Virus record (IMG/VR): IMGVR_UViG_2880361019_000006
DNA: 36,382 nt
Strand: one strand, 5' to 3'
Origin: a virus
Lineage: Duplodnaviria; Heunggongvirae; Uroviricota; Caudoviricetes
Shown: positions 9,001 to 12,000 of the stretch, one piece after another
Layout: each line of letters opens with the position of its first letter
Position numbering within the stretch: position 1 is the stretch's first letter
Position numbers: made by a program

Positions 9001-12000
9001 ATCATCGTCTGCCTGTCATGGGCGGTTAACCATTACCGTGATAACGCCATGACCTACAAAGCCCAGCGCGACAAAAATGCCAGAGAACTGAAGCTGGCGA
9101 ACGCGGCAATTACTGACATGCAGATGCGTCAGCGTGATGTTGCTGCGCTCGATGCAAAATACACGAAGGAGTTAGCTGATGCGAAAGCTGAAAATGATGT
9201 TCTGCGTAATGATGTTGCCGTTGGTCGTCGTCGGTTGCACATCAAAGCAGTCTGTCAGTCAGTGCGTGAAGCCACCACCGCCTCCGGCGTGGATAATGCA
9301 GCCTCCCCCCGACTGGCAGACACCGCTGAACGGGATTATTTCATCCTCAGAGAACGGCTGATGACAATGCAGAAGCAACTGGAAGGAGCACAGGAATATA
9401 TCCGTACCCAGTGTATACCGTGATGTTTTGTTATGAAGGTGTTACTGGTAACGTTAAGGTAATTTAACAAAAAGTCAGTTCCGGACTTTATAGTGTGCTC
9501 AGATCATGGCCAAAAACGATTTCTGTGATAAATATTTTGAATATTATTTACAGATAAATGAAGTGGGCGCATGGATGGAAATTTACAATAGAGTATGAAG
9601 TATATGTCCGTATTGTATGGGCAGAGAAGGCAAAAACACGGTAATTCCTTGTGTTGCCATGATACCTGATTGGCAGAATAGTTGTTTGGTTTTGAGTATA
9701 TAGTCAGCGTTTTTTGTTCAGTAATAGCTCTCTCAAAAAATAATAAAATAAGGTGATTATTTGGGTTTATTATTTAGTTTTTTTTGTGTGTTGTTTTGTT
9801 GTTTCTCTGTGATTTATTTTTTATTGTTATTTCATTAAAGGAAGGTAAATTTAGGATAGCAGTCTGTAGATAATCGGAGGTCACTTATGCTACATGATCA
9901 CCTGGCAGAATGTCTGGAGAAAAAAGGACTGTACCGGAGAGCAGCTGAACGATGGGCAAAAGTGATGGTACAGCTAAGTGATGACCAGAAAAGAAAAGTG
10001 GCGGCACAGAAACGAGCAGAGTGTTTGCGTAAGGCGCGCCGGACTCCGGTTTCACCGGTGAACCTGACAGAAATAAAACAAGCGGTCAACAGACTACATT
10101 CTGAGTTGGGAATGGGATTTGAAGAGCGGCGGGTATTCCGACGATATAAAGGGACAGGAGAACAGAATACGTCCGGAAACGCGCGGTCAAAAAAATGCTA
10201 AAAAATATCTGAGAGAGTTATTGCCTGTTACCATAATAAAAAGCGACTTTAGTGGTCGCTTTTGTGTCATATATAAGTCGTTTAAGTAAACCTGTCTGAA
10301 CAGGTGCTCTGGTCGTGTTTGTCTTTGTTGGGTAAAAATTGAGAATATTTTTCATTAATTAATCTTCTTCTGCAGGCTTCAATAACCCACGCTGAAAAAT
10401 TTTCTGAACCTTTCAGATCAAGAGCGATGTTAATTTGTTCAATCATCTGGTTTGGAAATCGGATGTTGCGGGTTGTTGTTCTGCGGGTTCTGTTCTTTGA
10501 TGACATAATGTTGCCCCCATATTCAGTGTTGCTGATTTGTATTATCTGAAGTTGCTTTTACGTTAATTTGATGCAGATCAATTAATACGATACCTGCGTC
10601 ATAATTGATTATTTGACGTGGTTTGATGGCGTACACGCACGTTGTGACATGTAGATGATAATTATTATTTTGTGGGTCCTTTCCGGCGATCCGACAGGTT
10701 ACGGGGCGGCGACCTCGCGAGTTTTCGCTATTTATGAAAATTTTCCGGTTTAAGGCGTTTCCGTTCTTCTTCGTCGTAACTTAATGTTTTTATTTAAAAT
10801 ACCCCCTGAAAAGAAAGGAAGCGACAGGTGCTGAAAGCGAGCTTTTTGGCCTCTGTCGTTTCCTTTCTCTGTTTTTGTCCGTGGAATGAACAATGGAAGT
10901 CAACAAAAAGCAGCTGGCTGACATTTTCGGTGCGAGTATCCGTACCATTCAGAACTGGCAGGAACAGGGAATGCCCGTTCTGCGAGGCGGTGGCAAGGGT
11001 AATGAGGTGCTTTATGACTCTGCCGCCGTCATAAAATGGTATGCCGAAAGGGATGCTGAAATTGAGAACGAAAAGCTGCGCCGGGAGGTTGAAGAACTGT
11101 GGCAGGCCAGCGAGACAGATCTCCAGCCAGGGACTATTGAGTACGAACGCCATCGACTTACGCGTGCGCAGGCCGATGCACAGGAGCTGAAAAATGCCAG
11201 AGACTCCGCTGAAGTGGTGGAAACCGCATTCTTTACTTTCGTGCTGTCGCGGATCGCAGGTGAAATTGCCAGTATTCTCGACGGGATCCCCCTGTCGGTG
11301 CAGCGGCGTTTTCCGGAACTGGAAAACCGACATGTTGATTTCCTGAAACGGGATATCATCAAAGCCATGAACAAAGCAGCCGCGCTGGATGAACTGATAC
11401 CGGGGGTGCTGAGTGAATATATCGAACAGTCAGGTTAACAGACTGCGGCATTTTGTCCGCGCCGGGCTTCGCTCACTGTTCAGGCCGGAGCCACAGACCG
11501 CCGTTGAATGGGCGGATGCCAATTACTATCTCCCGAAAGAATCCGCATACCAGGAAGGGCGCTGGGAAACACTGCCCTTTCAGCGGGCCATCATGAATGC
11601 GATGGGCAGCGACTACATCCGTGAGGTGAATGTGGTGAAGTCTGCCCGTGTTGGTTATTCCAAAATGCTGCTGGGTGTTTATGCCTACTTCATAGAGCAT
11701 AAGCAGCGCAACACCCTTATCTGGTTGCCGACGGATGGTGATGCCGAGAACTTTATGAAAACCCACGTTGAGCCGACCATCCGCGATATTCCGTCGCTGC
11801 TGGCGCTGGCTCCGTGGTATGGCAAAAAGCACCGGGATAACACGCTCACCATGAAGCGTTTCACCAATGGGCGTGGTTTCTGGTGCCTGGGCGGTAAAGC
11901 GGCAAAAAACTACCGTGAAAAGTCGGTGGATGTGGCGGGTTATGATGAACTTGCTGCCTTTGATGATGATATTGAACAGGAAGGCTCTCCGACATTCCTG

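Follow-up and report, generated by a model that had tools for sequence, protein, structure and literature searches.

The window, a stretch of DNA of 36,382 nt, carries a lambda-like prophage in which a regulator gene of the PerC family, pch, is followed by a convergent DUF3950 gene. Table 1 lists the features of this locus and two effector genes located much further along the window. The original prediction had placed pch between the lysis genes and cos, and the flanking features bear this out, with Rz ending at 9423 on one side and cosN and Nu1, the latter from 10893, on the other. Rz1, a lipoprotein ORF likewise annotated in Sakai, is nested within Rz at 9179-9361, and the identical locus L003 has a gene of 154 aa annotated at the Rz position. 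The 12-mer GGGCGGCGACCT at cosN is the lambda cohesive end; the record of phage DE3 has a 'cos site' annotated beneath its match to this area.

Table 1. Features of the pch locus and effector genes in the window
Feature	Position	Strand	Details
Lysozyme gene	8465-8962		
Rz (i-spanin), final lysis gene, left edge of the pch unit	8959-9423	+	Pfam Phage_lysis E=8e-53
AT-rich pch upstream region: promoter/regulatory DNA and 5' UTR	9424-9886	+	463 bp, 32.0% GC
T-rich tract, hypervariable part of the upstream region	9724-9830	+	contains the originally quoted string, 9779-9826
Shine-Dalgarno (SD) GGAGG	9876-9880	+	read from sequence; 6 nt ahead of ATG
pch, 104 aa, PerC family, group-1 PchABC type	9887-10201	+	PF06069 E=5.4e-44; identical to Sakai PchB
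Predicted anti-SD segment and predicted DicF pairing site, in CDS, codons 27-35	9965-9991	+	fold/duplex prediction
Terminator-like hairpin, bidirectional, separating convergent pch and DUF3950	10239-10263	.	10-bp stem AAAAGCGAC...GUCGCUUUU
DUF3950/YlcI-YnfO gene, 74 aa	10282-10506	-	PF13132 E=7.9e-18, NF041551, phrog_949
cosN cohesive-end sequence GGGCGGCGACCT	10704-10715	+	invariant in lambda alignment
Terminase small subunit Nu1, right flank	10893-11438	+	PF07471 E=1e-99
nleG-family T3SS effector gene	33716-34363	+	PF06416 E=4.4e-38
nleA T3SS effector gene, 441 aa	35057-36382	-	annotation of E. coli matches

The pch product was identified by comparison with protein families and with the Sakai RefSeq record. 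It was originally described as a 104-aa PerC-like ORF with an RRAAERW core, and a search with the PerC Pfam model had been set beforehand as the test on which that identification would hang. The search was run and the identification stands: PF06069 matched with a score of 148.8 bits, the cutoff being 22.6, and covered profile positions 1-89 of 90, with the RRAAERW motif at residues 17-23. The matching PHROGs were phrog_994 and others described as 'transcriptional activator'. The resemblance is even closer than the "Pch-like" of the earlier description, as the protein is identical to Sakai PchB (ECs_2182) at 104/104 residues and matches both PchA and PchC at 103/104, the single substitutions being L6V relative to PchA and V58M relative to PchC. 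Plasmid-borne PerC-family proteins, in comparison, share approximately 36-48% identity with it and align to residues 2-90 only. The exact sequence occurs in at least 1000 contigs, where it is named 'PchABC family transcriptional regulator'. Its length of about 104 aa, its near-identity to PchA, PchB and PchC, its site between Rz and cos/terminase and its conserved upstream region are those of the group-1 PchABC type. PchA, PchB and PchC are the three group-1 Pch proteins and are reported to be needed for full ler/LEE expression (PMC6265319, PMC4456613). No evidence contradicting the Pch identification was found. The gene is an ordinary and well-studied Pch virulence regulator that is already known.

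The pch ATG at 9887 is separated from the Rz stop codon by 463 bp of AT-rich DNA. The GC content of this region, compared with 52.2% for the whole window, is the lowest among all 463-nt stretches; only 0.06% of such stretches are equally AT-rich and every one of them overlaps 9424-9886. Runs of five or more A/T occur at 15.1 per kb here versus 3.6 per kb in the window. The region had been described as a leader of roughly 450 bp, AT-rich and rich in T-tracts; its composition is as described, but it is better termed promoter or regulatory DNA plus 5' UTR than a leader. The 48-nt T-rich string quoted with that description has an exact match within the T-rich tract (Table 1). In alignments of pch copies, there are 26-28 variable columns per 50 nt in 9724-9830, 3-14 in the rest of the upstream region and 1-5 in the coding sequence, such that the quoted T-tract belongs to the least conserved upstream segment. 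Overall, the upstream region is 95.0% identical to that of Sakai pchA, 88.7% to that of pchB and 98.3% to that of pchC, and its closest identity to the last makes it pchC-type.

Several other elements were sought in the upstream region. Rfam searches, conducted over the whole window at the gathering threshold and over 9300-10900 at a sensitive E-value, found no family in the region and returned chance-level eukaryotic hits only. A sliding 80-nt fold scan of both strands over 9380-10300 had no segment beyond z -2.9 in 92 tests and so provided no evidence of a hidden structured sRNA. A 30-aa ORF at 9506-9598 was rejected as coding because its frame is not conserved, two 1-nt indels disrupting it in other pch copies. 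A sigma-70 consensus scan gave 3 hits where 3.4 were expected by chance. The only one in the upstream region, at 9654-9682, is partly deleted in the E. albertii copy L004.

Comparison with lambda delimits the pch unit. From 9424 to approximately 10371, it takes the place of the lambda genes bor-ybcV-ybcW and is flanked by Rz and the DUF3950 gene. Deposited genomes of lambda-type phages match from window position 10372 on only, and the junction is visible in the lambda alignment. The exceptions are two short unannotated records of phage ECO95 over parts of the unit, and no phage covers 80% of the query. The GC content of 9424-10371 is 37.8%, compared with 52.2% for the window. The segment is thus foreign to related phages, distinct in base composition and equipped with a predicted terminator of its own, as a moron is. 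The predicted terminator is the hairpin at 10239-10263, with minimum free energies of -13.1 kcal/mol on the plus strand and -10.7 kcal/mol on the minus strand (z -3.2 and -3.5, respectively). A consensus terminator scan missed it, probably because the T-run belongs to the stem.

The convergent gene on the minus strand had been assigned to DUF3950 (YlcI/YnfO-like), which its PF13132 match confirms, and the NCBIfam model YlcI_YnfO_N (NF041551) scored 34.5 bits against a cutoff of 30. Its product is 89% identical over 53 aa to a 64-aa lambda ORF adjoining cos. The 3' end of the gene, from 10282 to approximately 10371, lies within the non-lambda segment, and lambda DNA homology runs from approximately 10372. 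The DUF3950 gene is part of the lambdoid phage backbone next to cos and lies outside the moron. The moron as first proposed, spanning 9424-10506, therefore stands in its pch part and has to be trimmed of its DUF3950 part, which is lambda backbone. Single-sequence AlphaFold models suggest, at low confidence, an all-helical fold for Pch (pLDDT 50.5) and, for the DUF3950 protein (pLDDT 58.1), two helices preceded by an extended N-terminus. Both models were too poor to be used for a fold search. No relatives of Pch with a solved structure were found. The idea that the DUF3950 protein is a ribbon-helix-helix protein was unsupported by Pfam, considered at E up to 10, or by a PDB sequence search.

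The window is 100% identical to CP034212.1, the chromosome of E. albertii strain 2010C-3449. The prophage has decayed, with Q and the whole early region lost to IS21 and IS1 elements, and consequently has no Q gene of its own. As the original prediction had it, the prophage carries effectors besides the regulator. E. coli matches that are 99.4-99.5% identical annotate 33716-34363 as a T3SS effector NleG family protein and 35057-36382 as 'nleA: type III secretion system effector NleA'; the 441-aa nleA product had no match in Pfam or NCBIfam. Of 5426 complete E. coli genomes, 673 contain the pch module at a coverage of at least 80%, annotated as 'PerC family transcriptional regulator' and 'YlcI/YnfO family protein'. 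Among complete E. albertii chromosomes, at least eight contain it. The 104-aa gene is intact in seven of the eight E. albertii loci compared, and the same protein was found in five of the six that were translated and in L003. In the remaining locus, L008, the gene is interrupted by an IS3-family element, indicating that the loss of pch is tolerated. Every E. albertii isolate of one study had pchA (PMC11979293). A survey that included 2010C-3449 reported the LEE with LEE1-5 in all strains examined (PMC10673567). When Sakai is compared with the type strain of E. albertii, which is not 2010C-3449 itself, the LEE1 core promoter (TTGACA-N17-TACACA) is invariant and the ler 5' region is mostly conserved.

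Folding predictions were made for the start of the pch mRNA. In the centroid fold, the SD/AUG region is paired with the segment 9965-9991, although the fold as a whole is no more stable than those of shuffled sequences (z -1.06). The predicted pairing partner of the SD varies with the assumed 5' end: a local hairpin with 9890-9915 competes with pairing to 9965-9995. The best predicted duplex of the 5' 24 nt of Sakai DicF falls on 9965-9991 at -24.2 kcal/mol, with 30 of 1000 shuffled sequences scoring as well. According to PMC7769764 and PMC7873438, the published model is one of anti-SD pairing in pch mRNA that is relieved by DicF, and the predicted fold and duplex agree with it. By this model, pch translation would be held back by pairing of the SD/AUG region with a coding segment until the sRNA DicF relieves it. 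No DicF gene was detected in the 36,382-nt window by the Rfam scan, so that another part of the genome would have to supply it.

Taken together, the segment from 9424 to approximately 10371 is very probably a regulator gene of the pchABC type that has a regulatory region and a terminator of its own and is carried as a late-region moron by a decayed lambda-like prophage of E. albertii 2010C-3449. Its likely mode of action can be drawn from the literature on the identical and near-identical EHEC proteins. Activation of LEE1 by Pch requires that H-NS/StpA silencing be in place, and Pch lowers the occupancy of LEE1, and of the nleA and nleG loci, by H-NS (PMC4764244). By analogy, Pch would bind AT-rich LEE1 promoter DNA and displace or remodel the H-NS/StpA/Hha silencing complex, and ler would thereby be turned on. 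Ler would then open the remaining LEE, and Ler and Pch together would open effector loci on prophages, among them nleA and nleG, which the prophage described here carries as well. The gene itself would be expressed from a promoter of its own within the AT-rich upstream region, controlled by the host regulators Lrp, with butyrate, and LrhA. PpchA is a target of Lrp/butyrate, and pchA driven by PpchA works as a plasmid-borne cassette (PMC7279287); the action of LrhA on pch promoters is reviewed in PMC4456613. Control by Lrp/butyrate, by LrhA and by DicF relief of anti-SD pairing is documented for pch and was absent from the original prediction. That prediction had reasoned from the activation of ler/LEE by Pch in EHEC that the prophage may feed into T3SS regulation, and it gains support from the identity to PchB and the associated literature, the nle genes and the LEE reported in the strain. 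A literature search turned up no experiments on what Pch does in E. albertii.

This interpretation was weighed against the possibility that pch is a passenger of the late operon, lacking its own promoter and dependent for transcription on Q-antiterminated read-through from pR' at prophage induction, the AT-rich stretch being a spacer or a recombination junction. The co-orientation of pch with the lysis and terminase genes would fit such an arrangement, as would the reported increase of group-1 pch expression upon SOS induction (PMC6265319) and the chance frequency of promoter-like hits, yet Q and the early region are lost while pch remains intact, with an upstream region that retains 89-98% identity across species. 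In addition, the plasmid-borne PpchA-pchA cassette is a synthetic one and works there, Lrp and LrhA are reported to act on pch promoters, and the pch unit has a predicted terminator of its own. We find the passenger explanation hardly credible. It is also very unlikely that pch is a silent or redundant relic that is kept off on a decaying prophage, for example by H-NS, and has no LEE role in E. albertii, with other pch copies sufficing or the LEE being independent of Pch. Its ORF, SD and upstream region are all intact, the protein is preserved among the E. albertii loci, pchA occurred throughout the isolates of the study cited above, and the EHEC pch genes are reported to be essential for LEE expression. 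These points have to be set against the clear degradation of the prophage, the interrupted gene in L008, the report that LEE expression in EPEC is unaffected by the loss of perC (PMC4764244) and the existence of C. rodentium entirely without Pch/PerC (PMC10714755).

A regulator gene with its own upstream control region is compatible with a further proposal, which is not exclusive of it, that 9424-9886 is itself silenced by H-NS and that relief from H-NS is the main control of pch. Silencing of this region is plausible from its AT-richness. Its low GC content and its A/T-tracts are those of an H-NS target, the former being the lowest in the window and the density of the latter four times that of the window, and low-GC horizontally acquired DNA across EHEC prophages is bound by H-NS (PMC4764244). 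On the other hand, the high-affinity nucleation motif of the Lang type (TCGATAAATT-like) is not enriched in the window, with 22 hits against 26.8 expected and one hit with two mismatches in 9424-9886, and conservation of the upstream region is lowest in the T-tract. A butyrate sensor built as PpchA-pchA-PLEE1 responded only after deletion of hns, an effect that could lie at PLEE1 (PMC7279287). Our literature search found no report of H-NS occupancy at a pch promoter, and the pch regulation documented there is by Lrp, LrhA and DicF. We consider the case for H-NS as the main control to be evenly balanced.

The contrast between the T-rich tract, which diversifies fastest, and the near-invariant remainder of the pch module leads us to a speculation that we regard as unlikely. 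The tract, which lies shortly before the ribosome-binding site, may constitute a cassette of pchA-, pchB- and pchC-type regulatory alleles that sets copy-specific responses to LrhA, Lrp or H-NS. On this view, E. albertii would have fixed the combination of a pchC-type upstream region and a PchB-type protein on a prophage that is immobile and eroded by IS elements, and Pch would be a domesticated host regulator and not phage cargo. Apart from this, an E. albertii prophage that carries the master activator of the LEE T3SS, with a protein equal to EHEC PchB, along with the effector genes nleG and nleA is a textbook example of how prophages connect regulators and effectors to LEE control. Its importance beyond correct annotation is small.

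The closest known systems are the pch loci of Sakai. PchB on Sp11 has the identical protein and the same order of Rz, pch, DUF3950, cos and Nu1, and Sp11 is a prophage of the same lambda-like type with nleG genes at its far end. It differs in its upstream region, where the differences are concentrated in the T-rich 9724-9830, and in that the window prophage resides in E. albertii and lacks the early region. PchC (ECs_2737) on Sp14 differs by one residue, shares the most similar upstream region and has the order Rz-pch-DUF3950-Nu1 as in the window. PchA (ECs_1091) on Sp4 is likewise one residue apart; there the block from lysis genes to pchA has the opposite orientation, and IS629 interrupts the DUF3950 gene. 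PerC of EPEC EAF-type plasmids belongs to the same PF06069 family and is a reported activator of the LEE1/ler promoter, but perC is plasmid-borne within perABC, not a prophage moron, and the EPEC LEE is reported to be less dependent on PerC. PchD and PchE of O157:H7 (groups 2 and 3) are also PerC homologues encoded on elements gained by horizontal transfer. Their reported influence on the LEE is small, and PchE is reported as a repressor of curli and flagella (PMC6265319, PMC7369912). The Pch protein described here belongs to group 1 by its identity to PchA, PchB and PchC. The lambda genes bor, ybcV and ybcW occupy the same slot from Rz to the DUF3950 gene beside cos and are likewise lysogen-expressed cargo dispensable for lytic growth; they are unrelated to pch, and homology to lambda returns only at approximately 10372.

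The original prediction, an ORF encoding a PerC-like protein behind an AT-rich upstream region, was confirmed as an observation, and its interpretation was supported with caveats. The product of this ORF carries the RRAAERW motif at residues 17-23 and matched the PerC model PF06069 along the whole profile (148.8 bits versus a cutoff of 22.6). When compared with the three annotated pch loci of E. coli O157:H7 Sakai, the protein was identical to PchB (ECs_2182) at 104 of 104 residues, while its sole difference was L6V from PchA and V58M from PchC. Judged by these alignments, the protein is more than PerC-like: it is a group-1 pch product. 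The exact sequence occurs on at least 1000 public contigs under the name 'PchABC family transcriptional regulator'. At the DNA level, 673 of 5426 complete E. coli genomes cover at least 80% of the 1083-bp query, and the annotation there reads 'PerC family transcriptional regulator' and 'YlcI/YnfO family protein'. Sequence searches for relatives of Pch and the DUF3950 protein with solved structures found none, and single-sequence AlphaFold models of both were too low in quality for use.

Features of the pch locus and the surrounding prophage
Feature	Position	Strand	Remarks
Integrase	1-1074	-	
Excisionase	about 1052-1270	-	
IS21-family istA/istB	2335-4637	+	
IS1 copy	about 4879-5576	-	
STnc100 sRNA match	5853-6085	+	Rfam, 89.4 bits, E=4e-18
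Holin			left flank of pch
Lysozyme	8465-8962		left flank
Rz	8959-9423		left flank, stop codon at 9423
pch	9887-10201	+	104 aa, PF06069 E=5.4e-44
Hairpin, 10-bp stem	10239-10263		between convergent pch and DUF3950 gene, A-run and T-run on flanks
DUF3950 (YlcI/YnfO) gene	10282-10506	-	74 aa, DUF3950 E=7.9e-18, NCBIfam YlcI_YnfO_N
Lambda cohesive-end sequence	10704-10715		right flank
Nu1	10893-11438		right flank
nleG	33716-34363	+	same prophage
nleA	35057-36382	-	441 aa, same prophage

The gene lies between the lysis genes and cos as had been proposed, with holin, lysozyme and Rz on its left and the cohesive end and Nu1 on its right, and the expected convergent DUF3950 gene is present. The slot between Rz and cos in lambda is occupied by bor, a ybcV-like gene, a ybcW-like gene and then a 64-aa minus-strand ORF adjoining cos (2441-2635 of the lambda locus L013). 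The product of this ORF is 89% identical to the DUF3950 protein over the N-terminal 53 aa, whereas the C-terminal tails differ, and the junction in the DNA alignment falls within the 3' end of the DUF3950 gene. The DUF3950 gene is therefore phage backbone; a protein of this family adjoining cos has been kept from lambda to the present prophage. A ribbon-helix-helix fold for this protein, guessed from its model, in which two helices come after an extended N-terminus, was supported by no tool. Deposited lambda-type phage genomes align with the query solely from 10372 onwards (about 93% identity); none of the deposited phage genomes spans most of the pch unit, parts of which are matched by two short phage ECO95 records without annotation. 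By these alignments, the pch unit in the strict sense runs from 9424 to about 10371 and has a GC content of 37.8%. The unit shows three of the four usual hallmarks of a moron, its terminator being a predicted hairpin that folds well on either strand (z of -3.2 and -3.5). As for the fourth, a promoter of its own, the sole upstream consensus match (9654-9682) does not exceed chance expectation, and one E. albertii copy lacks part of it. The locus is often targeted by IS elements. In Sakai Sp4 (22131-24700 of locus L010), an inversion has affected the lysis-pchA block, and IS629 has cut the DUF3950 gene short; in E. albertii CP117620.1 (10379-11956 of locus L008), an IS3-family element interrupts the 3' end of pch and leaves an 86-aa remnant.

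The AT-rich upstream region is 463 bp from the Rz stop codon to the pch ATG with 32.0% GC versus a window mean of 52.2%, the lowest of all 463-nt stretches in the 36 kb, and its density of A/T runs of at least 5 is four times that of the window. Judged from this base composition, binding of H-NS to the region is likely. A search for the Lang-type high-affinity H-NS motif gave no enrichment, and the literature consulted reports H-NS occupancy for the LEE and effector loci, not for pch promoters. Silencing by H-NS, as originally proposed for this region, is plausible, with the chances about even. The T-rich string first singled out is at 9779-9826, within the segment that varies most between pch copies: the T-rich tract (9724-9830) has 26-28 variable columns per 50 nt, compared with 3-14 in the rest of the region and 1-5 in the CDS. 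The tract is a hot spot for substitutions and small indels inside an otherwise nearly invariant module. The Rfam scan found no RNA family in the region and the fold scan no significantly structured segment; a 30-aa ORF there was rejected as coding since its reading frame is not conserved among pch copies.

The prophage itself is decayed. Its early region is missing: directly after integrase and excisionase come the IS21-family and IS1 elements, with the late genes starting at about 5632, and 1-5632 retains no gene for a repressor, replication or the Q antiterminator. Because of this loss, and because a plasmid-borne synthetic PpchA-pchA cassette is functional (PMC7279287), independent expression of pch is likely. 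The effectors anticipated on this prophage, nleG and nleA, are at its right end, in a locus (33716-36382) whose counterparts in E. coli genomes from poultry share 99.4-99.5% identity with it; the start codon of nleA coincides exactly with the end of the window. Elsewhere, the STnc100 match is just upstream of a DUF1737/SASA esterase gene (6157-8028), and the family recurs at the corresponding place in Sakai Sp4, Sp11 and Sp14. A P22 antirepressor-like ORF (P22_AR_N and P22_AR_C, 25668-26444, plus strand) is inserted among tail genes, and the JAB/NlpC tail-tip gene (26460-27236) follows it immediately. The lom gene (31349-31947) appears split, with ORF 31349-31750, which covers only positions 1-119 of the 199 in the Ail/Lom profile, being followed by another short ORF, and is probably a frameshifted pseudogene.

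A mechanism may be drawn from published work on EHEC proteins identical to this one or nearly so. There, Pch activates the LEE1 promoter solely under silencing by H-NS/StpA (with Hha) and, both in vivo and in a reconstituted system, reduces H-NS occupancy at LEE1; Pch and Ler reduce it across the LEE and effector loci including the nleA and nleG clusters (PMC4764244). By analogy, the Pch in the window would relieve H-NS/StpA silencing at LEE1 and, with Ler, lower H-NS occupancy over the LEE and the nleA and nleG loci. Since nleG and nleA are on the prophage that bears pch, regulator and regulated cargo travel together. Transcription of pch would in turn be controlled by Lrp with butyrate and by LrhA, as reported (PMC7279287; PMC4456613). 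Translation of pch is reportedly blocked by an anti-SD segment inside the CDS and freed by the sRNA DicF (reviews PMC7769764, PMC7873438), and the same block and release may operate here. If the 5' end is assumed to be 9800, the main pairing partner of the SD/AUG (9875-9889) is 9965-9995, and the first 24 nt of Sakai DicF, located with Rfam, have their best predicted duplex at 9965-9991 (-24.2 kcal/mol, reached in 30 of 1000 shuffles). Other assumed 5' ends give a competing local hairpin with 9890-9915, and, taken as a whole, the fold does not exceed shuffled sequence in stability. These predictions are consistent in part with the anti-SD/DicF model; the Rfam scan found no dicF in the window.

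The window is 100% identical over 20,225 nt to CP034212.1 (4,923,641 bp), the E. albertii clinical strain 2010C-3449 (PMC10673567, table), and the exact DUF3950 protein sequence is named from E. albertii. According to the same paper, every strain it examined has a LEE with conserved LEE1-LEE5 (PMC10673567). In the E. albertii type strain, ler is 92% identical to Sakai Ler; the LEE1 core promoter (TTGACA-N17-TACACA) does not differ from that of Sakai, to which most of the ler 5' region is also conserved. pchA was present in every E. albertii isolate of one study (PMC11979293) and has previously been listed among the virulence genes of this species.

Upstream of pch, the window shares 95.0%, 88.7% and 98.3% identity with the corresponding regions of Sakai pchA, pchB and pchC, respectively, and it pairs a pchC-type upstream region with a PchB-type protein. 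We consider it rather unlikely that the hypervariable tract is a regulatory-allele cassette and the gene domesticated on an immobile E. albertii prophage, a reading that would be modestly interesting at best if true. The pch described here is an already known and extensively studied element, a group-1 pch on a lambdoid prophage. It shares the gene order Rz-pch-DUF3950-cos-Nu1 with Sakai Sp11 and Sp14, whereas plasmid-borne PerC-family proteins are just 36-48% identical to its product.
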